Shown: one piece after another, positions 31,149 to 55,299 of the stretch
Layout of the letters: every line of letters begins with the position of its first letter
Numbering within the stretch: position 1 is the stretch's first letter
DNA from: an uncultured Alphaproteobacteria bacterium
GTDB taxonomy: Bacteria > Pseudomonadota > Alphaproteobacteria > HIMB59 > GCA-002718135
Length of the DNA: 64,000 bases
Assembly: GCA_902518895.1 (NCBI GenBank)
Contig: CABYHL010000001.1
Span: forward strand, 10,423 to 74,422
Reading direction: 5' to 3'
Notes under the pieces: generated by a model
Databases searched by the model: none
Told to the model about the DNA's origin: nothing
The model's input: the letters and a program-made list of their open reading frames with translations, nothing else
Position numbers and translations under genes: made by a program

Positions 31149-32039
31149 ATGAAAATCGGTATTGATGTAGGCGGTACCAAAACTGAGGGTATTCTTATAG
31201 ATCCAAATGGAACGGAAATAGATAGAAAAAGAATTAATACTGAAAAAAGTTATGATGGGACAATTAAGGGAATACTATCCATTATAAATCATTTTGAAGA
31301 TAAACACGGCAAAGCAGAATCTGTTGGTATGGGAATGCCAGGAGCCATATCAAATGATACAGCTCTAATCAAAAACGCTAATTCTATATGGTTAAATGGC
31401 AAACCTTTTAAGCAAGATTTAGATAAAATTTTAAGTAGAAATGTGAATTTGGAAAATGATGCTAATTGTTTTACTCTTTCTGAAGCGGTAGATGGAGCTG
31501 GTAAAGGGTTTGAAATTGTTTTCGGAGTCATAATAGGAACTGGTGTAGGCGGTGGTATCAGTATCAATCAAAAAGTAATAAGAGGTCGTAATAGCATTAG
31601 CGGAGAGTGGGGGCACATTGTTTTGCCCAGTAGAACAGAAGATGAAAAAAAATATGTTAAAAAATGTTATTGTGGAAAAGATGGGTGCTTAGAGACCTAT
31701 ATATCTGGACCAGGCTTTTCATCTGTCTATAATTTACGTTGCAATAAAAATTATAATTCACATCAAATATTAGATGGTTTTAATAATAAAGAAAAAGATA
31801 GTATCTTTGCACTAAATCAATATGTCGATCATTTAGCAAGAGGCTTATCTTTAGTTTGTAATATCCTTGATCCAGATGTGATTGTTTTGGGTGGAGGTAT
31901 GTCAAACATCGATTTTATTTACGAAAATATAAATGATGCTCTAAAAAAATATGTTTTTACAGATACGCTTCACACAAAAGTTGTAAAAAATATTCATGGT
32001 GATTCAAGTGGCGTAAGAGGGGCTGCTTGGCTTTCTTAA
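31149..32039 (+). CDS. ROK-family sugar kinase (Mak/fructokinase-like)
   Basis: GIDVGGTK, ENDAN, GTGVGGG, GEWGH, CYCG..GCLE; no HTH domain. Confidence 0.9.
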   Translation: MKIGIDVGGTKTEGILIDPNGTEIDRKRINTEKSYDGTIKGILSIINHFEDKHGKAESVGMGMPGAISNDTALIKNANSIWLNGKPFKQDLDKILSRNVNLENDANCFTLSEAVDGAGKGFEIVFGVIIGTGVGGGISINQKVIRGRNSISGEWGHIVLPSRTEDEKKYVKKCYCGKDGCLETYISGPGFSSVYNLRCNKNYNSHQILDGFNNKEKDSIFALNQYVDHLARGLSLVCNILDPDVIVLGGGMSNIDFIYENINDALKKYVFTDTLHTKVVKNIHGDSSGVRGAAWLS

Positions 32040-33487
32040 ATACCACCCATTGAAATATATTTTATAGTTAAATAGTCATCAAGGCCATAACGAGAACCTT
32101 CTCTTCCCATTCCTGATTCTTTTACACCTCCAAAAGGAACTTCAGCAATTGTTGGTAGCCCATTATTGATAGATACAATCCCATATTCAAGTGCTTCAGC
32201 AACTCTCCAAATTCTTCCAATGTCTCTTGAATAGAAATATGAAGCTAATCCATATGGTGTATCATTAGCCATTTTAATCACTTCATCATCACTGGAAAAT
32301 TTATAAAGAGGAGCAACAGGTCCAAATGTTTCTTCAAAAGTTATTTTTGCCTTTGTAGATACATTAGAGAGAACAGTTGGTTGATAGAAATTCCCACCAA
32401 GCGAATGCACATCTCCACCAATTGCTATTTTAGCTCCTGTGTTCACTGCATCTTGAACATGATCAACTACTTTTTCTAAAGAGGATTGATCAATTAACGG
32501 ACCAGATGTAATTCCGTCTTCAAGTCCATTGCCCACTGTTATTTTACTGACTTCATTTGTAAATTTTTCCAGGAATTCATCATAAATATTTTCATGCACA
32601 AATATTCTATTTGAACAAATACATGTTTGACCACTATTTCTAAATTTACTTTGAAGAGCTCCTGCAACAGCTTCATCCATATCTGCATCATCAAAAACAA
32701 TAAATGGTGCGTGACCACCAAGTTCCATAGACACTTTTTTTACTGTTGAGGCACTTTGCTCTAAAAGTATTTTTCCGACTTCCGTAGATCCAGTAAAAGA
32801 AATTTTTCTAACAATAGGATTGCTTGTTAGTTCTTTACCAATTTCACTTGCCGATCCAGTTATTACATTAAATACACCATCTGGGAAACCAGCTTCCTTA
32901 GCAAGTACTGCTACAGCTAATGCTGAATAGGGTGTTTGGCTTGCAGGCTTAACGACTGTCGTACAACCAACAGCAAGAGCGGCTGCACATTTTCTTGTTA
33001 TCATTGAATTTGGAAAATTCCATGGAGTTATCGCTCCAACAACACCAACAGGTTGTTTAATTATTACAATTCTTTTTCCAGGTCTTGGATCAGGAACTAT
33101 GTCACCATAAACTCTTTTTGCTTCTTCAGCATAGAATTCAATATATGAAGCACCCATTAGTATTTCACCCTTTGCTTCAGCTAGAGGTTTACCTTGCTCA
33201 ATAGTCATGATTTTAGCTAAATCATCTGCATTTTCTGTAATTAGCTCACCCCATTTTTTAAGAATAACTGATCTTTCTTTCGCAGTAGTTTCTTTCCAAG
33301 TTTGGAAAGCTGTATTAGCATCATCTATAGCTTTTTTAGTTTCTGAAACTGAGCATTTTGGGACATTGCCAATAATTTCAAGAGAGGCTGGATTATTAAC
33401 CTCAAGAGTTTCACCTGAAGAACTGTCAACCCATTCCCCATTTATGAAACATTTTTGTTTAAAGAGTGATTTGTTATTTAATTCCAT
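32036..33487 (-). CDS. gabD: NAD(P)-dependent succinate-semialdehyde dehydrogenase (GabD/Ssd-like)
   Basis: ITPWNFP..MITRK, SFTGST, SMELGG, FRNSGQTC, EETFGP, GREGS.YG. Confidence 0.88.
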   Translation of the reverse strand: MELNNKSLFKQKCFINGEWVDSSSGETLEVNNPASLEIIGNVPKCSVSETKKAIDDANTAFQTWKETTAKERSVILKKWGELITENADDLAKIMTIEQGKPLAEAKGEILMGASYIEFYAEEAKRVYGDIVPDPRPGKRIVIIKQPVGVVGAITPWNFPNSMITRKCAAALAVGCTTVVKPASQTPYSALAVAVLAKEAGFPDGVFNVITGSASEIGKELTSNPIVRKISFTGSTEVGKILLEQSASTVKKVSMELGGHAPFIVFDDADMDEAVAGALQSKFRNSGQTCICSNRIFVHENIYDEFLEKFTNEVSKITVGNGLEDGITSGPLIDQSSLEKVVDHVQDAVNTGAKIAIGGDVHSLGGNFYQPTVLSNVSTKAKITFEETFGPVAPLYKFSSDDEVIKMANDTPYGLASYFYSRDIGRIWRVAEALEYGIVSINNGLPTIAEVPFGGVKESGMGREGSRYGLDDYLTIKYISMGGI

Positions 33488-33530: not shown

Positions 33531-34634
33531 ATGACAATAGTTAATTCTTGGAATGAATGGGATCCATTAAAGCATGTTATAGTTGGGGCAGTTGAAAATG
33601 CCAACATACCTCCAATGGAACCAGCGCTTGAACCGAAAATTAGTAAAGATAGTGGTATGGCAGGATCTCACGGACCACGTTCAATGGAGTCAATTGATAA
33701 AGCAAATATACAATTAGAAAACTTTGTTAAAATTTTAAATTCCCTAAATATAAAAGTTGATAGACCAACACCTATTGATTTTTCTCAAAGTATCGAGACA
33801 CCCGATTGGTCTAATGATGGTATGTTTGGTTGTATGCCTCCAAGAGATGTTATTCTTACTGTAGGAAATGAAATGCTAGAGGCGCCCATGTCTTACAGAT
33901 GTAGATGGTTTGAGTACCTTGCTTATAGACCACTACTTGAAAAATATTATGCAGAAGATAAAAACATGAGATGGGAATCAGCACCTAAACCAAGATTAAC
34001 TAATCAATCGTATAAGTCTAATTATCTTCCTGAAGGTATAACGGAAGAAGAACGTTATAAAAAAATTGAAAATAGAGACATGATATTGACAGAAAAAGAA
34101 CCACTTTTTGATGCAGCAGAAATTTTACGCTTTGGAAAAGATCTTTTTTATCATAACAATTTTACATCAAATTTAAGTGGCTTAGATTGGTTAAGAAGAC
34201 ATTATCCAAATCATCGTGTTCATCAAATTAATTTACCAGGTGATTTAATTCCAACTCACATTGATGCATGTTTTACTCCTATTAAACCAGGAGTTATAAT
34301 TATTAATCCGAATAGAAAAATATCATCAGAGCAAAGAAAAATTTTTGATGATAATAAATGGGAAATTCATGAGGCAGCACCTTCTATCCATAATAGTCCA
34401 CCACCTATGTGTTATTCATCAATCTGGTTATCAATGAACGTTTTGATAATTGATCCTAAAACTATATGCGTCGAGGCAACTGAAGAAAAAATGATTAAAC
34501 AAATGGAAAGTTTTGGATTGGATGTCATTCCTGTTCCTTTTAGAGACGTTTATGCATTTGGGGGCAGTCTACATTGTGCCACTACTGATGTTCATAGAGA
34601 TGGTGAGTGTGAGGATTATTTTCCAAATCAATAA
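33531..34634 (+). CDS. Amidinotransferase (AGAT/StrB1-like, pentein superfamily)
   Basis: VNSWNEWDPL..VIVG, PPRD, FDAA (Asp), HID (His), WLSMN, FGGSLHCAT.D (Cys). Confidence 0.9.
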   Translation: MTIVNSWNEWDPLKHVIVGAVENANIPPMEPALEPKISKDSGMAGSHGPRSMESIDKANIQLENFVKILNSLNIKVDRPTPIDFSQSIETPDWSNDGMFGCMPPRDVILTVGNEMLEAPMSYRCRWFEYLAYRPLLEKYYAEDKNMRWESAPKPRLTNQSYKSNYLPEGITEEERYKKIENRDMILTEKEPLFDAAEILRFGKDLFYHNNFTSNLSGLDWLRRHYPNHRVHQINLPGDLIPTHIDACFTPIKPGVIIINPNRKISSEQRKIFDDNKWEIHEAAPSIHNSPPPMCYSSIWLSMNVLIIDPKTICVEATEEKMIKQMESFGLDVIPVPFRDVYAFGGSLHCATTDVHRDGECEDYFPNQ

Positions 34635-35389
34635 TGGATAGTTTTAAACAAAATAATTTTAAAGCCAATTTACATGACACAAGCTTTTCTAGAATTGGTA
34701 TAATTACACTATCAACGGATTTTACTATAGAGCAGGATTTTAGAAAAATTTGCCATAATTTACCAGTTGATCTGTTTTTTAATAGGATACCTTTTTTAAA
34801 TCCTCTAACTCATGAAAATTATATGAGGATGGCTGATCATCTTACAGAAACAACAAACCAAATACTACCCAATGAAAAAATACAAGTTGTAGCGTATGGA
34901 TGTACTTCGGGTACTATTGAAATTGGTGAAAAAAGAATAAGATCTGAAATTTTCAAGGCTAAACCTGATGCCTTAATTACTACACCTGTTACAGCAGCTG
35001 TCAAAGCACTTAAATTGTTAAATCATAAAAAAATTGCTGTTCTTACTCCTTATCCAAAAGATGTTAATGTTAAAGTTTACAAACATTTAAATGATAGTGG
35101 ATTTGAAATTAAATCATTTAGTTCGTTTAACTTAAATTATGATTCGGAAATTGCCAAAGTTACTCATGATAGTTTAATGCAAACAATCTCCTCAATTGAT
35201 TTAACAGATGTTGATAGTATTTTTGTTTCTTGTACTGCATTAAAAGTAATTGATATTATCGAAACATTAGAGTCAAAATTAAGCATAGATATCATTTCAA
35301 GTAATCAAGCTATTATTTGGGATTCATTAAGATTATCTAATATTAATCAAAAAATTGATGGTTTTGGTAACCTCTTTAAATTACATTAA
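34634..35389 (+). CDS. eutA: EutA-like protein (Asp/Glu racemase/maleate isomerase family)
   Basis: RIG.I.L.TD.T.E.DF, YGCTSG, LTPY, FVSCTAL, SSNQA..W; followed by eutB and eutC. Confidence 0.75.
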   Translation: MDSFKQNNFKANLHDTSFSRIGIITLSTDFTIEQDFRKICHNLPVDLFFNRIPFLNPLTHENYMRMADHLTETTNQILPNEKIQVVAYGCTSGTIEIGEKRIRSEIFKAKPDALITTPVTAAVKALKLLNHKKIAVLTPYPKDVNVKVYKHLNDSGFEIKSFSSFNLNYDSEIAKVTHDSLMQTISSIDLTDVDSIFVSCTALKVIDIIETLESKLSIDIISSNQAIIWDSLRLSNINQKIDGFGNLFKLH

Positions 35390-35401
35390 ATAGGGTTTAA
35401 A

Positions 35402-36364
35402 TTGATTACACTTCAGCAAATACAAGATGCGCATAAGAAAATTTTACCTTATGTTAATTATACACCATTAATTAATTCTAATTTCTTATCAAAAAATACT
35501 ACAGTAAAACTAAAGTTAGAAAATTTTCAAATCACTGGTTCATTTAAGTTAAGAGGTGCTGTTAATAAACTTCTTTCTTTAAGTGAAGATGACAAAAGCA
35601 AAGGAGTGATCGCAGTCTCTACAGGCAATCATGGCAAAGGCGTTGCTTATGCTTCAAAAGTATTGGGCATTCAATCAACAATATACATGTCTTCAATGGT
35701 TCCAGAATATAGAAAAGAGGCTATTGAAAAATTAGGAGCTAAAGTAGAAATTATTGGAAAGAATAGTGATGAAGCTGATTTGCATGCTAAACAAATTGCG
35801 AAAGAAAAAAATATCCCATTAATTCATCCTTTTGATGATGAAGATATTATAATAGGTCAAGGTACAGTTGGACTTGAAATGCTTAATGAATTTCCCGAAG
35901 TTGATACAGTAATTATACCAACATCTGGTGGCGGTCTTATATCTGGAATAGCACAAGCTATTAAACTTCAAAAACCTAATACAAAAATTATTGCCGTATC
36001 TATGGAAAGAGGCCCTTCAATGTATGAAAGTCTAAAAGAAGGTAAGCCTGTTGATGTAGAGGAAATTGAAACTTTAGCTGATTGTTTAGGGGGTAGTATT
36101 GGTTTAGATAATAAATTTACATTTAATATTGTACAACAATACGTTGATGACTTTGTTTTAGTAAGTGAAGAAAAAATAGCTGAGGGAATTAGAATAAATT
36201 TTTTAGAACATAAAATTGTATCTGAAGGTGCTGCAGCAACAAGTGTAATGGTTGTTAAAGAAAAATTAACATCGCACTTAGGAAAAAATATAATTTGTTT
36301 AATTTGTGGTGGAAATATTGACTCGGAACTATTTAACAAAGTTTTAAGCCATGCTCATCCTTAA
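35402..36364 (+). CDS. eutB: EutB-like PLP-dependent dehydratase (Thr dehydratase family; TTG start)
   Basis: TGSFKLRGA, STGNHG, HPFDD, SGGGL, LAD.LGG.IGLDN (EutB-type signature). Confidence 0.85.
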   Translation: MITLQQIQDAHKKILPYVNYTPLINSNFLSKNTTVKLKLENFQITGSFKLRGAVNKLLSLSEDDKSKGVIAVSTGNHGKGVAYASKVLGIQSTIYMSSMVPEYRKEAIEKLGAKVEIIGKNSDEADLHAKQIAKEKNIPLIHPFDDEDIIIGQGTVGLEMLNEFPEVDTVIIPTSGGGLISGIAQAIKLQKPNTKIIAVSMERGPSMYESLKEGKPVDVEEIETLADCLGGSIGLDNKFTFNIVQQYVDDFVLVSEEKIAEGIRINFLEHKIVSEGAAATSVMVVKEKLTSHLGKNIICLICGGNIDSELFNKVLSHAHP

Positions 36365-37325
36365 TAAAAATGATATTATTCAACATGTAGATTTGAATAA
36401 AAATCTCATACCAATAATAGAGGAAGCATTTAAAAGTCTATCAAAGGGTTTGGTAATGATGCCACCTATAATGAGAATTGATATTGAAAAATATCATGGT
36501 GAATCAGATGTTAAAGCTGCATACGTTGAAGGTCTTGATAGTTTTGCAATAAAAATTGCCTCAGGTTTTTTTGATAATCCAAAACTTGGTTTGCCATCTA
36601 GTAATGGACTGATGGTTTTATTGGATTCCAAGACTGGAGTTGTAAAATCTGTTTTATTAGATGAGGGTTATCTTACAGATACTAGAACAGCTATAGCAGG
36701 AGCAATAGCTACAAAATATTTATCAAATCAAAATGCTAATTCTGTTGGTATTATTGGGGCTGGAATTCAATCCAAATTACAACTTCAAGCAATAATGTTA
36801 GTTAGAAAAATAAACAAAATTATAGTCTGGGCAAGAGATGAGACAAAAGCGAACCAATTCTTAGAAAGTTTCAAAAATTTAGATATAGATTTGTATATAG
36901 CTTCTTCTTGCAAAGAATTGGCAAGCTTATCAGAAATAATTGTTACAACGACTCCTAGTAAAAAACCACTTTTGGAATTTGATTGGATAAATAAAGGAAC
37001 TCACATAACAGCAATGGGATCAGATGCTGAACAAAAAAATGAATTAGATCCTCATATGTTAAAATATTGTGATCAATATGTGCCTGACAATCAATTACAA
37101 ACAAGTGTTTTGGGTGAATTACATCATGCCTTAAAACAGAATATAATTTCTTCCAAAGAAAAATTTAATGAACTTGGCGATATTATTAGTGATCCAAGCT
37201 TAGGAAGAAAAAATAATGAAGATATAACTATATGTGATTTGACAGGAACTGGCGTACAAGATACTGCAATAGCAAGGTTTGCCTATAATCATTGTAAAAC
37301 AAATAATTTAGGCATCAATATTTAA
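36351..37325 (+). CDS. eutC: EutC-like ornithine cyclodeaminase/mu-crystallin family protein
   Basis: GE.DVK.AYV.GLD.FAIK..GFFDNPKLGLPS.NGLM, YLTD.RTA, AMGSD.E.KNE, DLTGTGVQDTAIA. Confidence 0.88.
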   Translation: MLILNKNDIIQHVDLNKNLIPIIEEAFKSLSKGLVMMPPIMRIDIEKYHGESDVKAAYVEGLDSFAIKIASGFFDNPKLGLPSSNGLMVLLDSKTGVVKSVLLDEGYLTDTRTAIAGAIATKYLSNQNANSVGIIGAGIQSKLQLQAIMLVRKINKIIVWARDETKANQFLESFKNLDIDLYIASSCKELASLSEIIVTTTPSKKPLLEFDWINKGTHITAMGSDAEQKNELDPHMLKYCDQYVPDNQLQTSVLGELHHALKQNIISSKEKFNELGDIISDPSLGRKNNEDITICDLTGTGVQDTAIARFAYNHCKTNNLGINI

Positions 37326-37328
37326 TTT

Positions 37329-38771
37329 ATGAGTCAAGCAATAATAAAAAAAACATCTGATTACTTCAAATCAAAAGGAGTTGTCTTACCTAGTATAAGT
37401 GAACTTCAAGATCCTCAAATTATTAATGATGATATTAAAAATTCTCTAAAAAAAATAAATAATAATGATATCAATCCACTTAACCTTTTTAGAGTTCATT
37501 GGTTTAATAAAAGAGATCAATCAGGTTTTGGAAATGAGCCTGAATATATTGTTCTTCCAACAGAATTTACAGGTGTTAAGGCAAAGATAATTGTAAATAT
37601 GGGACGATATTTTCCCTTAATAACAGCTCATAAAGTTTTGGCAGCTTATGGTTGTTTGCTTCCAAGAATATTGAATGGCACTTTTGATTATGAAAAACAT
37701 AAAGCAGTTTGGCCTTCAACAGGAAATTATTGCAGGGGCGGAGTGGCAATATCTCGGATTATGGGTCTTAATAGTATTGCAATACTTCCTGAAGGAATGA
37801 GTAATGAGAGGTTTGAATGGTTGAATAATTGGGTTGAAGATAAAAAAAATATTATAAAGACAAAAGGCACAGAAAGTAATGTTAAAGAAATCTATGATGC
37901 TTGTAATGAATTAAAAAAAGATAATCAAAATGATATCATAAATCAATTTGATGAGTATTATAATTATGGTATTCATCGTTCTGTAACCGGTCCATCGTTT
38001 GAAAAATCATTTCTTAAAGTTAAAGGTAACAGTAATTTAACTCCTAGGTTTTACGTAAGTGCTTCAGGATCAAGCGGTACTCTAGCAGCAGGAGATTATC
38101 TTAAAGATAAATTACAGACGAAGATTGCAGTTGTTGAGGCTTTGGAGTGTCCAACATTGCTTCATGGAGGTTATGGAGAACATAATATACAAGGTATTGG
38201 TGACAAACATGTTCCCCTTATTCATAATGTAATGAATACAGATTTTGTCGTAGATGTTTCTGATCAAGCTACCAATAATCTAAATATGATTTTTAATACT
38301 GAAATAGGAAAAAAGTTTTTAATTGAGAAAAAAAATTTTGAGCCTGATTTTGTTTCTCGACTTCCCGAATTTGGCTTTTCAGCAATAGCAAATATATTGG
38401 CATCAATAAAATTAGCTAAATATATGGATTTAAATAGTGATGATGCAATTATAACGGTTGCTACAGATGGTGCAGATTTATATATGTCAGAATTAAATAA
38501 GACCATTGCAGATTTTAAAAATAATTATGATGAAATAGTTTGTGCTGAACTATTTGGAAAACACTTATCAGGAATATCTACTGATAATATGCTAGAACTT
38601 TCTTACATGGACAAGAAAAGAATATTTAATTTAGGGTACTTTACTTGGGTAGAGCAACAAGGTGTAAGTCTTGAAGAATTTGAAAAAAGAAAAGATCAAA
38701 AATTTTGGAATTCACATTATGAATATATGCTTTCTCTAGACAATAAGATTAAAGAATTTAATAATATATAG
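37329..38771 (+). CDS. Uncharacterised PLP-dependent enzyme, fold type II (cysteine synthase/Trp synthase beta superfamily)
   Basis: AHKV (PLP Lys), WPSTGNY, GSSGT phosphate loop, HNIQGIGDKHVP, ATDG; 480 aa with terminal extensions. Confidence 0.75.
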   Translation: MSQAIIKKTSDYFKSKGVVLPSISELQDPQIINDDIKNSLKKINNNDINPLNLFRVHWFNKRDQSGFGNEPEYIVLPTEFTGVKAKIIVNMGRYFPLITAHKVLAAYGCLLPRILNGTFDYEKHKAVWPSTGNYCRGGVAISRIMGLNSIAILPEGMSNERFEWLNNWVEDKKNIIKTKGTESNVKEIYDACNELKKDNQNDIINQFDEYYNYGIHRSVTGPSFEKSFLKVKGNSNLTPRFYVSASGSSGTLAAGDYLKDKLQTKIAVVEALECPTLLHGGYGEHNIQGIGDKHVPLIHNVMNTDFVVDVSDQATNNLNMIFNTEIGKKFLIEKKNFEPDFVSRLPEFGFSAIANILASIKLAKYMDLNSDDAIITVATDGADLYMSELNKTIADFKNNYDEIVCAELFGKHLSGISTDNMLELSYMDKKRIFNLGYFTWVEQQGVSLEEFEKRKDQKFWNSHYEYMLSLDNKIKEFNNI

Positions 38772-38774
38772 GTT

Positions 38775-39929
38775 ATGAAAACTCAGTCATTACATAACCA
38801 ATTAGTAGAATGGCGTCATGATCTTCATATGCACCCACAATTAAGTTTTGAAGAAGAGTATGCTGCAGCAAAAGTGTCAACACTTCTAAAAGAGTTTGGA
38901 ATAGAAGTTCATTCTGGTATTGCCAGAACTGGAGTAGTTGGAATTTTAAAAAAAGGAAATAGTTCAAAATCAATAGGTATAAGAGCTGACATGGATGCTC
39001 TTCCTATACATGAAACTAATAAGTTTAGTTATAAGTCCAAGTTTGATAACAGAATGCATGCATGTGGACATGACGGTCACACAACAATGTTATTAGGTGC
39101 AGCAAAATATTTATCAGAAAAAGGTAACTTTAACGGTACGGTATATTTTATTTTTCAACCTGATGAAGAGAATACATTCGGTGCAAGAACAATGATAGAT
39201 GAAGGATTGTTTGATAAATTTAACATTGATGAAGTTTACGCTATGCACAATATTCCTAACATGGAAATTGGAACATTTGGTACAAGAAATGGAGCTATTA
39301 CAGCCAGCGAAAATTTATTTGAAATTGAAATAAAAACTAAAGGTGGGCACGCCGCATTACCTCATATGGGGGTAGATGCAATAACTGTTGGTTCTCAAAT
39401 AGCTGTAGCACTTCAATCGATAGTGTCTAGGAAATTAAATCCAGCAGACAATGGTATAGTGTCTATTACCGAATTTATAACTGATGGTAAAAAAAATGTT
39501 CTGCCAGGTATGGTAAAAATGACTGGTGACGCGAGAGCTTTATCAAAAGAAACAAATGAAAAAATTGCTTCAAAAATGTTACAAATAGTCGAAGGGATTT
39601 GCAATGCACATGGTGTTAATGGTAGTGTTAAATATGAAACAGCCTGTCCTGTAACTTTTAATTCAAAAAATCAAACTGAGTCTGCAACAAAAGCTGCAGT
39701 TTCTTTACTTGGTAGTGATAAATGTAATGGTAATATAGAACCACGTTTATTCTCAGAAGATTTTTCTGTTATGGCAAATGAAAAACCTGGCTGCTTTGTT
39801 TTAATGGGTAATGGAACATCAGAGCAGCATTCCAGACCTTTACATGCTGATAATTATGATTTTAATGACGAATTATTAGTCATAGGTTCTTCATATTGGA
39901 CTGAATTGGTAGAACAACAATTAAAATAA
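38775..39929 (+). CDS. M20D/Acy1-like amidohydrolase (hippurate hydrolase-like)
   Basis: WRHDLH.HP, RADMDAL, MHACGHDGH, FQPDEE, GGHAA.PH, SEDF. Confidence 0.9.
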   Translation: MKTQSLHNQLVEWRHDLHMHPQLSFEEEYAAAKVSTLLKEFGIEVHSGIARTGVVGILKKGNSSKSIGIRADMDALPIHETNKFSYKSKFDNRMHACGHDGHTTMLLGAAKYLSEKGNFNGTVYFIFQPDEENTFGARTMIDEGLFDKFNIDEVYAMHNIPNMEIGTFGTRNGAITASENLFEIEIKTKGGHAALPHMGVDAITVGSQIAVALQSIVSRKLNPADNGIVSITEFITDGKKNVLPGMVKMTGDARALSKETNEKIASKMLQIVEGICNAHGVNGSVKYETACPVTFNSKNQTESATKAAVSLLGSDKCNGNIEPRLFSEDFSVMANEKPGCFVLMGNGTSEQHSRPLHADNYDFNDELLVIGSSYWTELVEQQLK

Positions 39930-41087
39930 ATGTTTTCTGAAAACTTAAATAAACTAAAGAAAAAAATGTCTGAGAACAATATTGATCTCTCAATTATAAC
40001 TGATGATGACTCGATATATTATTTCACAGGATACCATGACTTCCTTCATATGGATTTTTATCGACCAACATTATTAGTTGTTTCAAATGATCATAAAACT
40101 TATTTAATAACACCTCTTCTTGATGTTTTATTAGTACCAGAATCTTGTCCTGTAGATATGGTTGAAACATGGAATGATGGTATTGGAAATGAATGGAGAG
40201 AATTATTACCTCAAATCATCAATCAGCATAAAAATATTTTTATTGAAAAATTTAAAATTAACCCAATGGTTAAGAGTTATTTAGACGAATTACTTCAAGA
40301 CCATCCCGGGGATTTAACCAAATTAATAGATAATATAAGAATGATTAAATCTAATCATGAATTGAATATAGCTCGTCATGCCGGCGAAGTTGGTATGGCT
40401 ATGATGGAGGCAGCAAAAAAAACAATTGGCCATAATGTTCCTGAGTATGAGGTTGCACTTGCACAATCACAAGCTGGAACAAGAAAAGCTGCAGATCTTT
40501 TAAAAGAATTTTATCCTGATAATATCAATATGTCTCCAAATATTCACTTTTTACCTGTTATGACATCGGGTCATGATTTACCTAAAACTCACCATCGTGC
40601 TTCAACCAAAATTATAAAAAAAGGTGATCCCGTATTCGTATGTTATTGTGGTTCTACAAATTTCCATAGGTTTAAATTAGGTTTTGACAGAATATTTTGG
40701 GTAGAAGAAATTCAATCCGATGAACAAATAAAAGCTTTTGAGACTGCAGTTAAATCTCAAAAAGCTGCTCTTGAAATTCTTGGCCCTGGAGTAACAGCTG
40801 AAGAGGTTCATGCTGCTTATGCAGATACTATACAGTCTGAGGGATACCCTTATCCTACATTTCGATGTGGAAGAGGTACAGGCTTTAGCTTTTTAGAGGA
40901 ACCACAATTAGTAGTTGGTAATAAAACAGTACTGGAGCCTGGAATGGTATTTGCCGTTGATGGCGGGGCAAGTGCAAATAATTTTAGATCACAAGTTGGT
41001 GATAGTTTTATTATAACAAAAGATGGATACGAACAAATTACACATCATTCTAAAAATATTGATGACCTAATAATTCCACATGGATGA
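39930..41087 (+). CDS. M24-fold (creatinase/prolidase) hydrolase lacking canonical metal ligands
   Basis: Creatinase-N-like domain (YYFTGY), R.IKS..EL, L.PG.T; CGRGTG replaces GHGxG; FAVDGG and VGDS replace the EP and IED motifs. Confidence 0.8.
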   Translation: MFSENLNKLKKKMSENNIDLSIITDDDSIYYFTGYHDFLHMDFYRPTLLVVSNDHKTYLITPLLDVLLVPESCPVDMVETWNDGIGNEWRELLPQIINQHKNIFIEKFKINPMVKSYLDELLQDHPGDLTKLIDNIRMIKSNHELNIARHAGEVGMAMMEAAKKTIGHNVPEYEVALAQSQAGTRKAADLLKEFYPDNINMSPNIHFLPVMTSGHDLPKTHHRASTKIIKKGDPVFVCYCGSTNFHRFKLGFDRIFWVEEIQSDEQIKAFETAVKSQKAALEILGPGVTAEEVHAAYADTIQSEGYPYPTFRCGRGTGFSFLEEPQLVVGNKTVLEPGMVFAVDGGASANNFRSQVGDSFIITKDGYEQITHHSKNIDDLIIPHG

Positions 41088-42105
41088 AATCACAGTATTT
41101 AACACACATTGCTGTGGTGAAATTGGGGATGTCGTAACTGGAATTAAAGGCTTGAAGTTTAATTCACCTGAGGAAGCTTCTAAAAAACTTTTTTTAGATA
41201 AAAAATGGAGAAATTTTTTTTTAAATGAACCTCGGGGAGGGGTCTTTAAACATTGTAATATTATTTTAGAACCTTCAAATAAAAATGCAGATGCTGGATT
41301 TGTAATCATGGAACCAGAAGATAATCCTCCAATGAGCGGATCAAATGCAATTTGTGTAACGACAGTCTTATTAGAAAAAAATGTTATTCAAATGAAATAT
41401 CCTAAAACCATGCTTACACTTGAAGCTCCCGGTGGTTTAATAAAAGTTGTTGCTGATTGTGAAAATAAGAAAGTTAAAAGTGTCACTTTAACTAATCTTG
41501 CCTGCTTTGCAGATAAAATAGATGTAGATTTAAAGACTAAAAATTATGGTACAATTAAAGTAAGTACTGCTTTTGGTGGTGACAGTTTTTTAATTTGTAA
41601 TGCTAGCGATTTTAATCTTAAAATTGAACCAAAGAATGCAAATAAATTTGTAAATGTTGCTAAAGAATTATTGAAAGAAGCAAACGCATCTATAGGATTT
41701 GAACATCCTACTATTAAAGGATTAAACTATCTTTCTTTTTGCCAATTTATTGAACCCTTAAAAAAAAATAATCAATCATTACTTACAGGATTAAATACAG
41801 TTGTTATACGACCTGGAAAACTTGATCGTTCACCCTGTGGTACAGGCACTTCAGCAAGATTAGCAGTAATGAAAGAAAAAAATGAAATACAAATAAATGA
41901 AGAATTTATATCAAAGTCTATTATAGGATCTTCATTTAAAGCAAGTATTCAAAAGGAAATTAAAATTAATAACAAAAATTGTATTATTCCAAAAATAACA
42001 GGTAGTGCATTTATTACTGGAAAACAAAGTTTATATATCGATAAGGATGATCCTTTTCCAGAAGGTTATAGATTAAATGACACATGGCCAGATTCATCAA
42101 GTTAA
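41080..42105 (+). CDS. Proline racemase/hydroxyproline epimerase-dehydratase family protein (Ser/Cys dyad)
   Basis: H..GE, EPRGG, PPMSGSN, DRSPCGTGTSAR, DPFPEGY. Confidence 0.9.
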   Translation: MDEITVFNTHCCGEIGDVVTGIKGLKFNSPEEASKKLFLDKKWRNFFLNEPRGGVFKHCNIILEPSNKNADAGFVIMEPEDNPPMSGSNAICVTTVLLEKNVIQMKYPKTMLTLEAPGGLIKVVADCENKKVKSVTLTNLACFADKIDVDLKTKNYGTIKVSTAFGGDSFLICNASDFNLKIEPKNANKFVNVAKELLKEANASIGFEHPTIKGLNYLSFCQFIEPLKKNNQSLLTGLNTVVIRPGKLDRSPCGTGTSARLAVMKEKNEIQINEEFISKSIIGSSFKASIQKEIKINNKNCIIPKITGSAFITGKQSLYIDKDDPFPEGYRLNDTWPDSSS

Positions 42106-42181: not shown

Positions 42182-43447
42182 ATGACAAAATTTAATGCCT
42201 GGAATGTAATTAAAAACGGTTTAAATGGTCAGTCTTATTGGACTAGACAATGGCGTGATCCAGAACCAAAAAGTAGTTATGATGTTGTAATAATTGGGGG
42301 AGGTTTACACGGTCTTGCCACGGCATATTATTTAGCAAAGAATCATAATATAAAGAATGTAGCTGTCTTAGAAAAAGGCTGGATTGGTGGAGGAAACGCT
42401 GGACGTAATACAACTATTGTAAGATCAAATTATATGATGCCAGGCAACCACGAATTTTATGAACATTCTTTAAAGTTATGGGAAAATTTAAGTCACGAAT
42501 TAAATTATAATGTAATGTTTAGCCAACGAGCTCATGTCTCGTTATTTCATAGCCCTGGTGCTAAAGATTCAGTTTCACGGATTTATAATATTATGCGACT
42601 CCATGGAACTGATGCAGAACTTTGGGATTTAAAAACTTTAAAGAAAAAAATTCCGCATTTAAATTATCATAATTCTAGATTTCCAATACTTGGAGCTGCA
42701 GTTCAAAAAAGAGCAGGTAATGCAAGACACGATGCAGTTGCATGGGGTTATGCAAGGGCTGCAGATACATTAGGTGTAGACATTCTTCAAAATTGTGAAG
42801 TTACAGGTTTTACAAGAAAGAATGGAAATATTGAAAGTATTCAAACTTCAAGAGGAATTATAAAAGGAAAGAAAATAGGATTTGCTGTTGCAGGCAATAC
42901 TTCAGTATTATGGCAAATGGTAGAATTAGGCAACCTGCCAATTGAATCCCATAAACTACAAGCATTTGTATCTGAGGCTGTTAAACCACTTCTAGACCAA
43001 GTTGTTGTTTATGGTGTGGGTGGTGCGCATTTCTATATATCGCAGTCAGATAAAGGGAGCATGGTGTTTGGTGGTGATCTTGACTGGTATAAATCATATG
43101 CTCAAAGAGGAAATCTTCCTATGGTTCAAGATGTTGCCGAAGCGGCCATGGCGATATTTCCTTCACTTGGAAGAATAAGATTACTTCGTCATTGGGCAGG
43201 TGTTATGGACATGACAATGGACGGATCATTTTTTATTTGTAAAACGCCAATATCTAATCTCTATTTAAATGCTGGTTGGAACTATGGTGGTTTCAAAGCT
43301 AGTCCTGCATCAGGTTGGTATTTTGCTGACTTAATTGCAAATGAAAGCCCGCATAACTACGTGCAAAATCATAATTTAGAAAGATTTGAAAAAGGTATCA
43401 ATATTGATGAACGTGGCGCAGGACCTGATCCAAAATTGCACGGTTAA
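42182..43447 (+). CDS. soxB: Heterotetrameric sarcosine oxidase-type subunit beta
   Basis: GGGLHGLATAYYLA, GGN.GRNTTIVRSNY, ARHDAVAWGYA. Confidence 0.92.
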   Translation: MTKFNAWNVIKNGLNGQSYWTRQWRDPEPKSSYDVVIIGGGLHGLATAYYLAKNHNIKNVAVLEKGWIGGGNAGRNTTIVRSNYMMPGNHEFYEHSLKLWENLSHELNYNVMFSQRAHVSLFHSPGAKDSVSRIYNIMRLHGTDAELWDLKTLKKKIPHLNYHNSRFPILGAAVQKRAGNARHDAVAWGYARAADTLGVDILQNCEVTGFTRKNGNIESIQTSRGIIKGKKIGFAVAGNTSVLWQMVELGNLPIESHKLQAFVSEAVKPLLDQVVVYGVGGAHFYISQSDKGSMVFGGDLDWYKSYAQRGNLPMVQDVAEAAMAIFPSLGRIRLLRHWAGVMDMTMDGSFFICKTPISNLYLNAGWNYGGFKASPASGWYFADLIANESPHNYVQNHNLERFEKGINIDERGAGPDPKLHG

Positions 43448-43732
43448 ATGATTAGAATCAATTGTCCTTATTGTGGTGAAAGAGATCATAGTGAATTTAG
43501 TTACGGAGGAGATGCAACAATCAATTATCCTTCGTTAGATGCATCAGAGAAAGATTGGACTGAAGCTATATTTTTCAGAAAAAATATAAAAGGTTTTCAA
43601 TTTGAAACATGGCATCATTCTAATGGATGCAGAATGTGGTTGGTAGTTGAACGTTCTACTGTCACTCATGAAATAAAAAGTGTCAAACCATGCCATCCAG
43701 ATTTACAGAAGGTTGTAGAAAATAATAAATGA
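43448..43732 (+). CDS. soxD: Sarcosine oxidase-type subunit delta
   Basis: CPYCG.R..EF, W.H..GC..W Zn ligands. Confidence 0.92.
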   Translation: MIRINCPYCGERDHSEFSYGGDATINYPSLDASEKDWTEAIFFRKNIKGFQFETWHHSNGCRMWLVVERSTVTHEIKSVKPCHPDLQKVVENNK

Positions 43733-46686
43733 AGACAAGAAGAATAGATAACTATGGAAAAATTAATAGAGATAAAATTTTATCCTTTAGCTGGGATAAA
43801 AAAAATTACAAAGGTTTTGAAGGAGATACTCTAGCATCAGCATTACTTGCAAATAATATTGGTATAGTTGGTAGAAGTTTTAAATATCATAGACCAAGGG
43901 GAATATTTTCTAGTGGAGTCGAGGAATCTGGTGCTTTAGTTACTATTGGTTCAAAAGATAGAAGAGATCCAAATGTAAGAGCAACAACACAAGAATTATA
44001 TAATGGTTTGGAAGCAAGTGGTCAAAATGCATTTCCAAATGTAAATTTTGATCTAGCTGGAATAAATAATTACTTAGGTAGGTTTTTTGCAGCTGGTTTT
44101 TATTATAAAACTTTTATGGGAATACCTCCACTTGAATGGGGTAAAGGAACAGCCATATGGATGTTTTTTGAAAAGTTTATTAGAAAAGCTGCGGGAATGG
44201 GAAGTGCTTCTGGGTTACCCGATCCAGATACTTATGAGCACGCTCATGATTTTTGTGATTTAATTGTTGTAGGATCAGGACCTGCTGGTGTTGCAGCTGC
44301 AATAGAGGCAGCAGAAAAAAAATTAGATGTTATTTTAGTTGAGCAAGATAGTCTTATTGGAGGAAATCAACTTGCAGAAAATGATTTTGATAACTCACAA
44401 ATTAAAAATCAACTTGAAAATCTAGGCATAAAAATAATGACTAGAACTACTGCATTCGGATTATATGATAATTGCGTTGTTGGTTTATTAGAGAGAGTAA
44501 CAGACCATATATCAGCACCAAATGTAAACATTCCACGCCAAAGATTTTGGACCATTAGAGCAAAGCATATAATTGTTGGTGCTGGAGCAATTGAAAGACA
44601 CATTGCATTTAATAATAATGATATTCCTGGTGTAATGACCGTAAATGCATCAAAGCATTATTTGAATAGATATGGTGTACTCACTGGAAAAAGTATTGTG
44701 ATAGCTACAAATAATGATTCTGTTTATGAAACAGCACATCAATTATCAGAAGCTGGGGCTAATGTAACTGTTCTTGATTCACGAACTAATTTTGAAATTG
44801 AGACAAATAAAAGTTTTGAAATTAGAAAAGGGTATGTGCCTTATAATATTAATGGTTCAAAAAAAATTGATAGTTTAGATATATCAAAAAGTGAAATTAT
44901 TAATAAATCTGAAACTATAAATTGTGATCAGGTTCTATTATCAGGTGGCTGGTCACCTGCTGTACATTTGTTATCTCACAGAGGTGTAAAGCCTAAATGG
45001 GATTATAACAATGCTTGTTTTTTACCAAGTGACACAAAAGAAAATATTACAATGGTAGGTTCTTCTAGAGGTTTATGGAATAAAAATGATTGTATTGCTT
45101 CTGGGATAGCAGGAACTACTAGTGTGTTGAACCGTTTAGGTATTTCTAAAACAAATTATTTTTTCCCAAAACCTGGTGGATGGAAAAATCCCATACAACC
45201 ACTTTATGAAGTAAAATATAAAAAATCTAGATCAAAAAGTTTTGTAGATTATCAACATGATGTAACGACAGATGATGTAAGACTCGCACATCGTGAAGGT
45301 TTCATTTCGGTAGAGCATCTTAAAAGATACACAACTTTAGGTATGGCAAACGATCAAGGAAAAATGGGAAATATCATTGGATTATCTTTAATGGCTGAAC
45401 TTTTAAATAAAGAAATTCCAGAAGTTGGAACTACTGTTTTTAGACCTCCTTATACTCCTGTATCTATAGGTGCCTTAAGCGGAAGAAATGTTGGAAAACA
45501 TTTTAGGCCGTTAAGAGTAACGCCAATGCATCAATGGAATATTGATCATGGTGCAAAAATGATTGAAGTTGGATTGTATCAAAGACCTTGGTATTATCCC
45601 AAAGAAAATGAAACTTTAAGTGACTCTTATATAAGAGAGGCATCAACAGTAAGAAAAACAGTTGGAATTTGTGATGTAACATCACTAGGCAAAATTGCTA
45701 TTCAAGGACCAGACTCTACCGAATTTTTAAATAGAATTTATTCGAATGGTTTTTCAAAACTACAAGTTGGAAAAGCTAGATATGGTATCATGTTGCGTGA
45801 TGACGGTATTGTAATGGATGATGGCACATCTTGGAGATTAGCAGAAAATGAATATTTTATGACGACGTCTACAGGTGAAGCTGCAAAAGTGATGTCATGG
45901 TTAGAAGAATTACTTCAAACTAGATGGACAGATCTTAATGTTAATGTGACTAGTGTTTCTGAACAATGGGCAGGCGTATCAGTTGCAGGACCTAAATCTA
46001 GAGAAGTTCTCAATAATTGTGTCGATGATTCTTTTGTTATAACTAATAATAACTTACCTTTTATGGGTGTTACTTCAACATTTCTTAAAGGTAATATTCC
46101 TTGTAGAATTGCAAGAATTAGTTTCTCAGGTGAATTAGCTTTTGAAGTTTATGTCAAATCAGATTTTGCTAATACAATGATGGACTTACTTTGGGAAAAT
46201 GCAAAAAAATATGATGGATGTTTATATGGATTAGAAGCTTTAGGTGCACTTAGAGTTGAAAAAGGTCATGTAACAGCTGCTGAGCTTGATGGAAGAGTAA
46301 CTATTGATGATGCAGGTTTAAGCAAAATGGCATCTACAAAAAAATCATATATTGGAAGCGCAATGAGAAAACGAGGAGTATTAAAAAATAATGATCGAGA
46401 AATTCTTGTAGGTTTCTTTCCTGTAAAATTAAAGGAAACTTTTAATGCTGGAACTATTGTCTGTGAAAAAAATAATATTAAAGGACAGGGTATCGGAAGA
46501 ATTACCTCAGTTACTTATTCTCCAGAACTTGGACATTGGATTGGATTAGGTTTTGTCAAGGGTGGTTTAGATAAATGGAAAGATACTAATTTAGTTGGGG
46601 CAGATCCTGTAAGAAATAAACAAATCAATTTAAAAGTTGTTTCACCACATATGATTGATCCTAAAGGAGAACGAATGTATGCATAG
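43729..46686 (+). CDS. soxA: Sarcosine oxidase-type subunit alpha (GcvT-like THF domain)
   Basis: GDTLASALLAN, RSFKYHRPRG, EHLKRYTT.GM..DQGK, DV..LGKI, ISFSGELAFE. Confidence 0.93.
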   Translation: MKTRRIDNYGKINRDKILSFSWDKKNYKGFEGDTLASALLANNIGIVGRSFKYHRPRGIFSSGVEESGALVTIGSKDRRDPNVRATTQELYNGLEASGQNAFPNVNFDLAGINNYLGRFFAAGFYYKTFMGIPPLEWGKGTAIWMFFEKFIRKAAGMGSASGLPDPDTYEHAHDFCDLIVVGSGPAGVAAAIEAAEKKLDVILVEQDSLIGGNQLAENDFDNSQIKNQLENLGIKIMTRTTAFGLYDNCVVGLLERVTDHISAPNVNIPRQRFWTIRAKHIIVGAGAIERHIAFNNNDIPGVMTVNASKHYLNRYGVLTGKSIVIATNNDSVYETAHQLSEAGANVTVLDSRTNFEIETNKSFEIRKGYVPYNINGSKKIDSLDISKSEIINKSETINCDQVLLSGGWSPAVHLLSHRGVKPKWDYNNACFLPSDTKENITMVGSSRGLWNKNDCIASGIAGTTSVLNRLGISKTNYFFPKPGGWKNPIQPLYEVKYKKSRSKSFVDYQHDVTTDDVRLAHREGFISVEHLKRYTTLGMANDQGKMGNIIGLSLMAELLNKEIPEVGTTVFRPPYTPVSIGALSGRNVGKHFRPLRVTPMHQWNIDHGAKMIEVGLYQRPWYYPKENETLSDSYIREASTVRKTVGICDVTSLGKIAIQGPDSTEFLNRIYSNGFSKLQVGKARYGIMLRDDGIVMDDGTSWRLAENEYFMTTSTGEAAKVMSWLEELLQTRWTDLNVNVTSVSEQWAGVSVAGPKSREVLNNCVDDSFVITNNNLPFMGVTSTFLKGNIPCRIARISFSGELAFEVYVKSDFANTMMDLLWENAKKYDGCLYGLEALGALRVEKGHVTAAELDGRVTIDDAGLSKMASTKKSYIGSAMRKRGVLKNNDREILVGFFPVKLKETFNAGTIVCEKNNIKGQGIGRITSVTYSPELGHWIGLGFVKGGLDKWKDTNLVGADPVRNKQINLKVVSPHMIDPKGERMYA

Positions 46687-47242
46687 ACATTCTGCACTAG
46701 AAACAATTTATAAGGTTGGAAAATATTCATCAAGCGGGAAACAATCTCTAACATTTAAAGAATTAAAAAGTTTAGAAATTTTGCAAATTGCTTGTTGGCC
46801 TGACAAAATTGATGAAATGAATAATTTATTATCAAAAGAACTAAAAATTAAAAATATTCCTAGTTTTAATAAAGGGATAATTTTTGAAAATAAATCATTA
46901 TGGAGAATGGAACCTTTGAAATGGTGGCTATTTAATAAAGAAATTAAAATAAGTGAGCAAATCGCAACAACTTTAGATATGTCTCATGCTTTCACAGGTA
47001 TTGAAATTACAGGAGATAATTCATCATTATTTTTAAATAGACATCTTCCAATTGATTTAAGAGCTAGAAATTTTCCAGATCTATCTTCTGCTAGCTCAGC
47101 TATTCATCATGTCAGTGTTAAGCTATTTAAAATAACTTCCAATAACTACTGTCTATATATACCAAGAGGTTTTACTTTATCAATTTGGGAGATCCTTCTT
47201 GAAACAGCGTATCAGTTTGGATACGAAGTATTAGAGAGATAG
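46679..47242 (+). CDS. soxG: Sarcosine oxidase-type subunit gamma
   Basis: LDMSH, PIDLR, PRGF..S.W..L...A..FG; start moved to ATG 46679 with AAGGAG at 46664-46669, overlapping the soxA stop. Confidence 0.85.
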   Translation: MHRHSALETIYKVGKYSSSGKQSLTFKELKSLEILQIACWPDKIDEMNNLLSKELKIKNIPSFNKGIIFENKSLWRMEPLKWWLFNKEIKISEQIATTLDMSHAFTGIEITGDNSSLFLNRHLPIDLRARNFPDLSSASSAIHHVSVKLFKITSNNYCLYIPRGFTLSIWEILLETAYQFGYEVLER

Positions 47243-47316
47243 ATAGATTATCTAAGGGTAACGGAAACTGGTTATAAACTAATTACTAATGTATTTAGCG
47301 ATTTGCATATAGCAAA

Positions 47317-47997
47317 TTAATCATTTGCATCACCACCTCCGGCACCTTTTGACCTAGATTCCTCTGACTCAGGAACAAAAGTTCTAAAAGCTATTTTAGA
47401 TATTTCCTCCCAAGATTCTTTATCAGGATTGATACCCTTAGAGAGCAAGTTATTTATATTTGATGATGGAATATTAATATCTAATTTTTGTTCATTAAAA
47501 ATTTTCTTTGTGAGTAAAAGATCAAAATTTCTTTGATAATTTGTAGAGATAATTTCTCTATTAACCCTAATATTTTCATTTGTTATTTGTGCATCTATTT
47601 TTTGATCTAACAAAAACTGTGAATAGATATTTTTTTTGGCATACTTATAAAGCAAAGGTATTAGGAATATGGGGTCGCTACAATTTTTTAAAGTTAATTT
47701 AAAATTATCCCTTTTATTTATTTTTGATACTAAATAATCAATCAATCCTGGGCCTATGACCAAAAAAGATTTATTTTTACAATCAAACTCATCATTTATT
47801 TTTGACGGATCTATACTGGCATTAGAAGTGTTGTCTAATTCTTCAAGTTTTAATTTTAATAATTTGATCCCATCCAAACCAAATACTTCAAGCCATGTAG
47901 TAATAAATGCAGCATCCTCATCTGATCCATAAGTGAATCCTAATCCTGAAAAAGCTCGTTGTGTATTAGTGTAGACTTCATAGTAAGAATAACTCAC
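47317..47997 (-). CDS. DUF3726-like protein of unknown function (GTG start)
   Basis: N-terminal S..EV...RAF.G.G..G..EDAA..WLE..G; C-terminal W..I..A.RTFVPESE.SR..GAG; GTG at 47997, 5 nt after the upstream stop. Confidence 0.65.
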   Translation of the reverse strand: MSYSYYEVYTNTQRAFSGLGFTYGSDEDAAFITTWLEVFGLDGIKLLKLKLEELDNTSNASIDPSKINDEFDCKNKSFLVIGPGLIDYLVSKINKRDNFKLTLKNCSDPIFLIPLLYKYAKKNIYSQFLLDQKIDAQITNENIRVNREIISTNYQRNFDLLLTKKIFNEQKLDINIPSSNINNLLSKGINPDKESWEEISKIAFRTFVPESEESRSKGAGGGDAND

Positions 47998-48002
47998 AGA
48001 TA

Positions 48003-49667: not shown

Positions 49668-49721
49668 TTATTAAATATGTATAGTTAATTTTGGTTTTTT
49701 CATTAATAGAAGTATTAATCT

Positions 49722-51584: not shown

Positions 51585-51613
51585 TTGACTATTTGTTTTC
51601 ATGCAGTTATTCA
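51585..51613 (+). promoter_or_regulatory. Putative sigma70 promoter for the ABC transporter operon
   Basis: TTGACT (51585-51590)-N17-TATTCA (51608-51613), 21 nt before ATG 51635. Confidence 0.55.
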
Positions 51614-51634
51614 AGCTTCATTACAAAATATATT

Positions 51635-52723: not shown

Positions 52724-52815
52724 TTATACTTTTTTCTATATATTTAGCCAAAATTTTTTACTTTTACCCCTTTTTTTTCATTTAACGACATGTTATTACA
52801 AGAGCATTACAGACA

Positions 52816-52829
52816 TAATCTTAAGATTA
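52816..52829. promoter_or_regulatory. Perfect 14-bp palindrome upstream of the SBP gene
   Basis: TAATCTTAAGATTA. Confidence 0.3.
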
Positions 52830-52854
52830 AATAATTAAAAATAGGAGGATATAT

Positions 52855-53958: not shown

Positions 53959-53989
53959 GCTTGATAAATTAAAATTTGTAATTTAATCT

Positions 53990-54015
53990 AAAGGCGAGAA
54001 TTATCTCGCCTTTTT
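53990..54015 (+). terminator. Intra-operonic stem-loop/intrinsic terminator after the SBP gene
   Basis: aaaggcgaga-atta-tctcgccttt followed by a T-run. Confidence 0.75.
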
Positions 54016-54029
54016 ATTTGGAGGTTACT

Positions 54030-55295: not shown

Positions 55296-55299
55296 TAAT

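Follow-up and report, generated by a model that had tools for sequence, protein, structure and literature searches.

Within a 64,000-nt window of an uncultured alphaproteobacterial genome (GenBank assembly GCA_902518895.1, contig CABYHL010000001.1, positions 10,423-74,422, forward strand; assembly of 1.27 Mb, 29% GC, 71% complete), we studied a gene array that starts with an amidinotransferase and for which an original prediction had proposed one coupled eight-gene operon. The array is best read as a twelve-gene catabolic patchwork, the core of which likely breaks down a cyclic amidine that is N-methylated and ectoine-like, probably based on 2,3-diaminopropionate (probability of about 0.55). 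This core is portable and consists of a metal-less M24 hydrolase, a racemase slot and the sarcosine-oxidase-family heterotetramer SoxBDAG, often with an M20 amidohydrolase. We are fairly confident of the mosaic-plus-core architecture, and the diaminopropionate-based substrate class is a tentative assignment. What is new here is a portable M24-racemase-Sox core with M20 that is creatinase-like rather than EutD-like and present in culturable hosts.

A portable core in other lineages

Plasmids of Roseovarius pelagicus and Aminobacter SR38 carry an M24 homologue (54-56% identical), followed by an arylmalonate-decarboxylase-family gene and then the sox genes. Ahead of M24, both plasmids hold an Ehu-type ATP-binding cassette (ABC) system, an M20 gene and a diaminopropionate ammonia-lyase gene. 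Among 303 plasmid records, these two are the only ones with a SoxB at least 74% identical to that of the window (next best 60%); the window SoxB is 75-76% identical to the two plasmid copies and 52% to the host's other SoxB. Canonical EhuB and the binding proteins encoded in the M24 clusters share only 26-33% identity. Parts of the arrangement recur in other genomes: genome G175 has the order M20-M24-racemase, G188 has ehu-eutBC-doeD-M20-M24 with a diaminopropionate ammonia-lyase gene facing it, and in G144 such a lyase gene lies directly before an 81%-identical SoxB.

We also inspected metagenome loci with an M24 match. Of 80 listed loci, the count covers the 37 distant ones, which clustering at 85% identity reduces to 20 groups; the 43 closer loci were read as well but kept out of the count. 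M20 lies directly upstream in 6 of these groups, a racemase directly downstream in 5 and a flavin amine oxidase within the locus in 6, such that 14 groups show at least one of the three. No group has the amidinotransferase, the pyridoxal-phosphate (PLP) enzyme, eutB, eutC or the proline racemase.

Two further clusters were noted, one expanded and one recurring. The complete 5.1-Mb genome G188 (L241-L200; G188:C1 ~1930000-1947000) combines argE, EutD, ehuBCDA, eutBC and a C-N hydrolase with three further M24s, doeD, M20 and diaminopropionate ammonia-lyase. A Photobacterium TY1-4 plasmid (L364, 5829-14398) and L264 (353-5613) hold diaminopropionate ammonia-lyase, an Asp/Glu racemase, M20 and another M24, in the Photobacterium case together with a TRAP (tripartite ATP-independent periplasmic) transporter; it has the look of an ectoine-type pathway for diaminopropionate.

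With regard to the M24 protein, none of the five metal ligands of metal-dependent M24B Xaa-Pro peptidases (Asp, Asp, His, Glu and Glu, at what we take to be their positions in 1PV9) is kept; the aligned residues are C238, G251, R315, D344 and G357. The structural model (predicted local distance difference test score 90) is closest in fold to creatinase (template-modelling score 0.86), with a value of 0.78 for EutD. Creatinase F62, R64 and H232 correspond to F43, R45 and H221, and these positions are kept in 12/12 aligned family members and 37/37 distant loci. In place of creatinase E262, E358 and Y258, M24 shows D253, D344 and K249, and the R335 loop is absent (the roles of creatinase Phe62, Arg64, His232, Glu262, Glu358, Tyr258 and Arg335 are presumed here). 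EutD sequences are without equivalents of creatinase R64, E262 and E358. Scored against profile models (given as model score/cut-off throughout), M24 reaches 57/613 for EutD and 54/575 for DoeA2. A quick tree search, which gave long-branch warnings, places it in a clade with the M20-adjacent copies of G175 and G188 (99 SH-aLRT) and outside the EutD clade; all other trees are FastTree runs on small sets. Because the metal ligands are gone and creatinase residues are kept that EutD lacks, the sequence indicates that M24 is probably no EutD substitute. The original prediction of a divergent creatinase-fold hydrolase agrees well with this fold and these residues.

The slot between M24 and soxB is held by an EutA-family racemase in other lineages and by a proline-racemase-family protein in the window, a position which suggests that the latter replaced the EutA-type racemase. 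Its closest solved structures are 4K8L, 1TM0 and 4K7G, and the T3LHypDht model scores 417/550. It shares a catalytic Ser86 with Asn89 with the trans-3-hydroxyproline dehydratases and 4-hydroxyproline epimerases described in the accessible part of PMC4113996, which also gives Ser/Cys as the pair of epimerase B9JQV3; the window protein has Cys253, while 4K8L and dehydratase B9K4G4 have Thr. The Ser/Thr pair of trans-3-hydroxyproline dehydratase (cluster 3 of the proline racemase superfamily) is thus missing, and an epimerase or racemase role is conceivable.

As for the remaining core partners, M20 groups weakly with M24-adjacent M20s (support 0.55, FastTree). For the window SoxA, identity is 57-60% with the M24-linked copy and 45% with the copy linked to homarine (hom) genes in Ruegeria TM1040 (C-terminal 414 aa, partial). 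The substrates of sarcosine-oxidase-family enzymes have a CH3NHCH(R)COOH backbone, and sox is a frequent misannotation of mgd genes (PMC13236597).

In the proposed route, the amidine would first be opened by the metal-free M24, in a reaction like that of creatinase, an enzyme that cuts beside an N-methyl group. M20 would take off the acyl group set free, and a racemase would then change the configuration at the alpha carbon of the N-methyl amino acid. This third step would be taken by the EutA-family protein elsewhere and, in the host, likely by the proline-racemase-family protein in the same slot or else by the upstream EutA-like protein. SoxBDAG would then remove the N-methyl group by oxidation. 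In other bacteria, the last step would fall to diaminopropionate ammonia-lyase; since no such gene was found in the host genome, the EutB-like or the CysK-fold PLP enzyme would have to stand in here. The simplest substrate that uses every partner would be an N-methylated five-membered ectoine analogue, converted to N-methyl-diaminopropionate and on to diaminopropionate. The core would parallel the ectoine design (open the amidine, deacylate, deaminate), extended by a demethylase and a diaminopropionate lyase partner. An amidine other than ectoine, as had been suggested from the outset, would be the best candidate substrate. In its most specific form, which we put forward with considerable doubt, the core would be an undescribed pathway for an abundant marine N-methylated five-membered ectoine analogue built on diaminopropionate, involving a new family of creatinase-derived hydrolases and a proline-racemase-family enzyme that replaced the EutA-type racemase for an N-methyl amino acid. 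The gene combination had been called undescribed, and no description of it was found in the literature searched, most subscription journals being outside that search. The accessible part of PMC10308909 does not mention ectoine, sarcosine, creatin- or urease.

Several observations weigh against this picture. The complete genome G144 has Sox and no M24 match, and G175 and G188 have M24 with a SoxB of just 58-59% identity, i.e., the M24-Sox link is not obligatory. Diaminopropionate ammonia-lyase was not found in the host genome or in four relatives (best 83/276 bits). The window's EutA-like protein shares only 31-34% identity with the M24-linked racemases and falls outside their group. The search pattern already contained K249, G251, D253 and D344, so all 37 loci had to show these residues, and absent neighbours on metagenome contigs, many of which are short, are weak evidence. 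The proline-racemase-family gene may belong to an independent hydroxyproline module because it adjoins an Ldh_2/MLD2 gene in several relatives; hydroxyproline dehydratases are known to be partnered by MLD2, and the systems of Zhao et al. 2014 (PMC4113996, accessible part) use MLD2 or OCD ketimine reductases. Finally, the eight-gene order is complete in 14/20 loci of the genus and in three other genera (4 genomes), a pattern that fits true coupling of all eight genes as well as shared descent.

Creatine-like and ectoine-like alternatives

The main alternative is a linear creatine analogue, i.e., an N-amidino-N-methyl amino acid from which M24 would free urea and Sox would remove the methyl group, as for creatine; on balance we find it unlikely. 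In common with the creatine pathway (creatinase EC 3.5.3.3 and sarcosine oxidase), a metal-free pita-bread hydrolase with the F62/R64/H232 positions is coupled to a sarcosine-oxidase-family enzyme, and urease is present, with scores above cut-off in the host and 4/4 relatives. This also fits a metagenome group (L348/350/357) with creatinase, M20 and M24 in one run, as well as amidinotransferases elsewhere, which among the matches listed lie near a creatinase in 6/60 and near an agmatinase in 6/60 loci. However, identity to creatinase is ~22%, both guanidinium-binding Glu positions (E262, E358) are Asp, Y258 is Lys and the R335 loop is missing. Furthermore, the array's racemase and M20 would be superfluous for creatine breakdown, and this reading gives no account of the deacylase M20, of the ammonia-lyase or of the Ehu-type transporter.

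Quite unlikely, in our assessment, is a non-orthologous (hydroxy)ectoine route in which M24 and M20 would do the work of EutD and EutE, and eutABC would deal with the hydroxyl group. The EutA-, EutB- and EutC-like proteins do have these families as their best NCBIfam models, yet score below the equivalog cut-offs (208/318, 349/413 and 413/472). EutB and EutC each branch as the sister group of their canonical set, and the EutA-like protein takes no clear position (FastTree, small sets). The roles of EutABC themselves are proposed rather than proven in the accessible parts of PMC5924519 and PMC13188858. Like ectoine/hydroxyectoine clusters, the array holds the eutABC-like genes in alphaproteobacterial order, adjoins a succinate-semialdehyde dehydrogenase gene and shows the design of metal-free M24 hydrolase, deacylase and PLP enzyme; relatives of the host add Ehu transporters (in some, ehuABCD above cut-off between eutC and the PLP gene) and an EutD-like gene. 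G188 places M20-M24 after ehu-eutBC-doeD. M20-type deacetylases have precedents in the NCBIfam DoeB2 model and in abgB of Bacillota clusters (accessible part of PMC13188858), and the methylotroph DoeA2/DoeB2 route (NCBIfam NF038259, NF038260) likewise pairs an M24 hydrolase with an M20D deacetylase. In contrast to that route, the scores are 54/575 and 316/550 here, and M20 suits a generic amidohydrolase model equally well.

The other canonical ectoine-type parts were not found in what is available of the host. EutD, EutE, the diaminobutyrate aminotransferase and Ehu had been reported as not recognisable, and a search of the 71%-complete host genome (G000) indeed returned no EutD, EutE, DoeD or EhuB. 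The best EutD match has E 2e-13, EutE has no match in the host or in 4 genus genomes of 89-96% completeness, and DoeD is above the PRK07482 cut-off in 0/5 of these genomes; the four class-III aminotransferases of the host suit other families, and the doeD-type gene of G188 does pass this cut-off. EhuB scores 40/191 in the host and is above cut-off in 3/60 genus genomes. Neither a Ueh TRAP transporter nor EnuR is among the 27 window proteins scanned (no genome-wide search was made for them), and no regulator was seen among the window proteins scanned.

Unlike known ectoine clusters, the array also includes the amidinotransferase, CysK-fold, proline-racemase-family and Sox genes, of which an N-demethylase is needless for ectoine, and the low identity of the M24-cluster binding proteins to canonical EhuB also speaks against this route. 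M24 itself belongs to a separate creatinase-like clade and is without the EutD residues. Beyond that, an EutD-like gene and M24 occur together in the same array in many relatives, which, along with the differing active site, weakens the earlier suggestion that M24 and M20 stand in for EutD and EutE. This EutD-like gene scores 460-485/613 on TIGR02993, follows soxG in the loci examined and is full length in 23/60 genus genomes; in the host, 1,116 nt are missing at ~47255 compared with G282 (blastn). The eutBC genes likely encode a hydroxy-amino-acid dehydratase and its imine-reductase partner, inherited from a module of hydroxyectoine type that has lost its EutD-like gene here.

Layout and modularity of the array

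The eight open reading frames of the original prediction all lie on the plus strand at 33531..42105, and their junctions (-1, 12, -14, 3, 3, 0 and -8 nt) as well as the family assignments (amidinotransferase, EutA/B/C-like, PLP enzyme, M20D, metal-less M24, proline-racemase-family) are as described there. Its boundary was drawn too short, i.e., soxBDAG, the most consistent partner of M24, was missed: the same-strand run goes on after 76 nt into these genes, which belong to the same unit and bring it to twelve (Table 1). No terminator-like site was found in the 76-nt gap by a promoter/terminator scan, which was used only for this gap and gave fewer sites than shuffled sequences (57 vs 84; 5 vs 6.8).

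Table 1. Genes of the array and its immediate flanks (window coordinates).
Feature	Coordinates	Strand	Remarks
GabD-type succinate-semialdehyde dehydrogenase (ssd)	32036..33487	-	TIGR01780 731/646; conserved flank, divergent from array across 43 nt
Amidinotransferase (AGAT fold)	33531..34634	+	Separable module; D194/H243/C349 retained
EutA-family protein (Asp/Glu racemase, arylmalonate decarboxylase fold)	34634..35389	+	TIGR02990 208/318; own clade in tree
EutB-like PLP dehydratase/ammonia-lyase	35402..36364	+	PRK07476 380/413; 41-47% to other EutB
EutC-like imine reductase/cyclodeaminase	36351..37325	+	PRK08291 453/408, TIGR02992 413/472; best plasmid matches EutC ~50%
Fold-type-II PLP enzyme (CysK/CBS-like, invariant K102)	37329..38771	+	Separable; varied neighbours elsewhere
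M20D amidohydrolase, predicted core deacylase	38775..39929	+	TIGR01891 321/154, DoeB2 316/550; 60% to M24-adjacent M20 of G175
Metal-less creatinase-like M24 hydrolase, core marker	39930..41087	+	Alignment, structural model, tree
Proline-racemase-family protein, Ser86/Cys253	41080..42105	+	Between M24 and soxB
soxBDAG, sarcosine-oxidase-family heterotetramer, predicted core N-demethylase	42182..47242	+	SoxB 75-76% to two plasmid copies
Remnant 3' end of EutD-like gene	47255..47320	+	blastn vs relative G282; ~1,116 nt gone here

The tight junctions had been taken to indicate a coupled operon. Genome-wide, however, gaps of at most 15 nt occur in 69% of 849 same-strand neighbour pairs (median 2), and 8/662 runs comprise at least 8 genes. 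Since close spacing is the norm of this genome, the junctions are weak evidence of coupling, and this background rules them out as proof.

We compared the gene order among relatives. In 20 genus loci, the eight-gene order is intact in 14, cut by the locus end in 3, interrupted by insertions in 2 and without the racemase in 1. Ten further loci of the same bacterial order show the full arrangement in 4 genomes of three other genera and in one sister-family genome, one locus without racemase, two sister genera (G494, G544) with M24-racemase-soxBDAG alone and two partial cases. The racemase gene is lost in G025 and G511. Insertions affect three joints: eutC|PLP (ehuABCD and a BisC-type oxidoreductase), eutA|eutB (an Ehu-type system, argE, a glutamine amidotransferase, bisC and two more M24s) and racemase|soxB (an Ldh_2 gene, with or without a ProVWX-type transporter). 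These insertions and the racemase loss point to modularity of the array. M24, the core marker, is present in 48/60 genomes of the family. The Ldh_2 protein of relatives is 34% identical to HomE and is as plausibly a ketimine reductase. A BisC-type S/N-oxide reductase accompanies two different Ehu-type transporters inserted in the array (L039 10420-15827; L041 1536-11395).

The PLP enzyme and the amidinotransferase are separable from the rest of the array. The PLP enzyme has a CysK/CBS fold according to fold and PDB comparison, and atlas, PDB and fold searches return only an unannotated CysK/CBS-fold family. Among 399 other alphaproteobacterial genomes, it occurs in 13, M24 in 11 and both in 2, where they lie on different contigs, i.e., the two homologues are never adjacent in this set. 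Its neighbours in the 13 genomes vary (CoA transferase plus luciferase in 4, agmatinase family in 4, diaminopropionate ammonia-lyase in 1).

The amidinotransferase has no match at all in Pfam and NCBIfam; its nearest match is human arginine:glycine amidinotransferase (AGAT, E 2e-76). D194, H243, C349 and R262, i.e., the Asp-His-Cys triad and the Arg322 position, are invariant in 38 sequences. In the acceptor flap, distinct in the genus, I240/T242 take the place of N300/M302 of human AGAT; the accessible part of PMC4887976 links these human residues to substrate binding. Because these flap residues differ, glycine specificity is not to be expected. The gene is found in 30/35 genus genomes and 0/24 of the sister family. 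Our survey listed 80 amidinotransferase loci, 60 of them outside the genus; among these matches, 0/60 have eutB, eutC, the PLP enzyme, M20 or a proline racemase, and an EutA-family gene occurs in 1, an M24 relative in 1, creatinase in 6, agmatinase in 6, a PotD-type binding protein in 6 and an ArgT-type one in 8. In the deltaproteobacterial locus L088, the amidinotransferase adjoins a 40% M24 relative. The amidinotransferase likely serves a separate guanidino-compound route. Speculatively, together with the head-to-head gabD it might move the amidino group from omega-guanidino acids to ornithine, with gamma-aminobutyrate passing on to succinate.

The claim of one eight-gene guanidino-metabolite pathway with the amidinotransferase as an integral step is improbable. 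It could draw on the order kept across several genera of the family, the distinct acceptor flap of the genus, the L088 neighbourhood and RNA-library contigs that span 6/7 joints; it is opposed by the absence of eutB, eutC, PLP, M20 and proline racemase from the 60 outside loci among the matches listed, by transporters and other enzymes inserted mid-array in relatives and by a spacing that equals the genome background. A pure by-product of genome compaction without functional coupling is highly improbable, and for the core already largely refuted: 69% of same-strand neighbours are equally tight and PLP homologues have varied neighbours, but M20-M24, M24-racemase and M24-Sox adjacency recurs in unrelated, non-streamlined genomes. 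The original prediction had named two signs of such a by-product, of which one was seen (the eight genes do not co-occur outside the bacterial order) and the other was not (no eutDE elsewhere in the host genome).

Further observations were made on amidinotransferases. NCBI labels P0003, P0007, P0014, P0078 and P0105 'serine/threonine protein kinase', which is a misannotation. In Desulfobacterales (L089, 9968-14903), an amidinotransferase lies directly upstream of carbamate kinase and ornithine carbamoyltransferase, which suggests a role in an arginine-deiminase-like energy route. Among Pelagibacteraceae (L112, L114, L118, L119, L122), some genomes have a true creatinase directly upstream of the amidinotransferase, and others lack it at this place. 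The window itself encodes a PotABCD-like ABC transporter (51593-56196), whose homologues (52-62%) stand beside amidinotransferases, agmatinases and creatinases in other lineages and which may import guanidino compounds rather than polyamines.

Transcripts, significance and flanking genes

Near-identical sequence is present in seawater RNA: seven studies contributed fourteen runs in which 35-52% of the words sampled were recovered. RNA-library contigs of 4 runs cover 29-30/30 bins and span, besides the 6/7 joints, the racemase|soxB joint. One contig also spans the divergent ssd|amidinotransferase gap, and joint-spanning is therefore no proof of co-transcription; DNA carry-over is possible.

Catabolic genes that are kept by streamlined ocean bacteria hint at common compounds, and homarine breakdown was found in this way. 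If the proposed route is true, the presence of M24 in so many genomes of the family would suggest that part of the ocean's dissolved organic nitrogen has so far been overlooked. Since the core resides on plasmids of two cultured strains along with a binding protein of its own, the substrate can be sought there. The route would also correct the labels 'Xaa-Pro peptidase', 'sarcosine oxidase' and 'ectoine transporter' on these genes.

The ssd gene, which flanks the array in 20/20 genus loci, was tried as HomD (34% identity, not supported) and as DoeC (49%, not separable from GabD). Just downstream of the array (47317-50708) follow a DUF3726 gene (717 nt), a gene for a 554-aa hypothetical protein (1665 nt) and a membrane dipeptidase gene. 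We take these to be the likely homA, homB and homC, because gene order and lengths match PMC13236597; their Ruegeria TM1040 homologues are 26, 39 and 41% identical and stand in hom gene order. The array thus resembles the homarine operon homABCD with mgdABCD (PMC13236597) in what adjoins it. In contrast to that operon, the window SoxA is closer to the M24-linked than to the hom-linked copy, and no HomD orthologue was found (best 34%). The hom genes of the homarine paper include no racemase and no M24 (PMC13236597). An assignment of the EutA-like, EutD-like and sox genes to a homarine pathway was mostly rejected, with SoxA being nearer to the M24-linked copy. Further downstream, at 58945-62842, three consecutive genes (glutamine-synthetase-like, aldehyde dehydrogenase and iron alcohol dehydrogenase) resemble a gamma-glutamylation route for amines.

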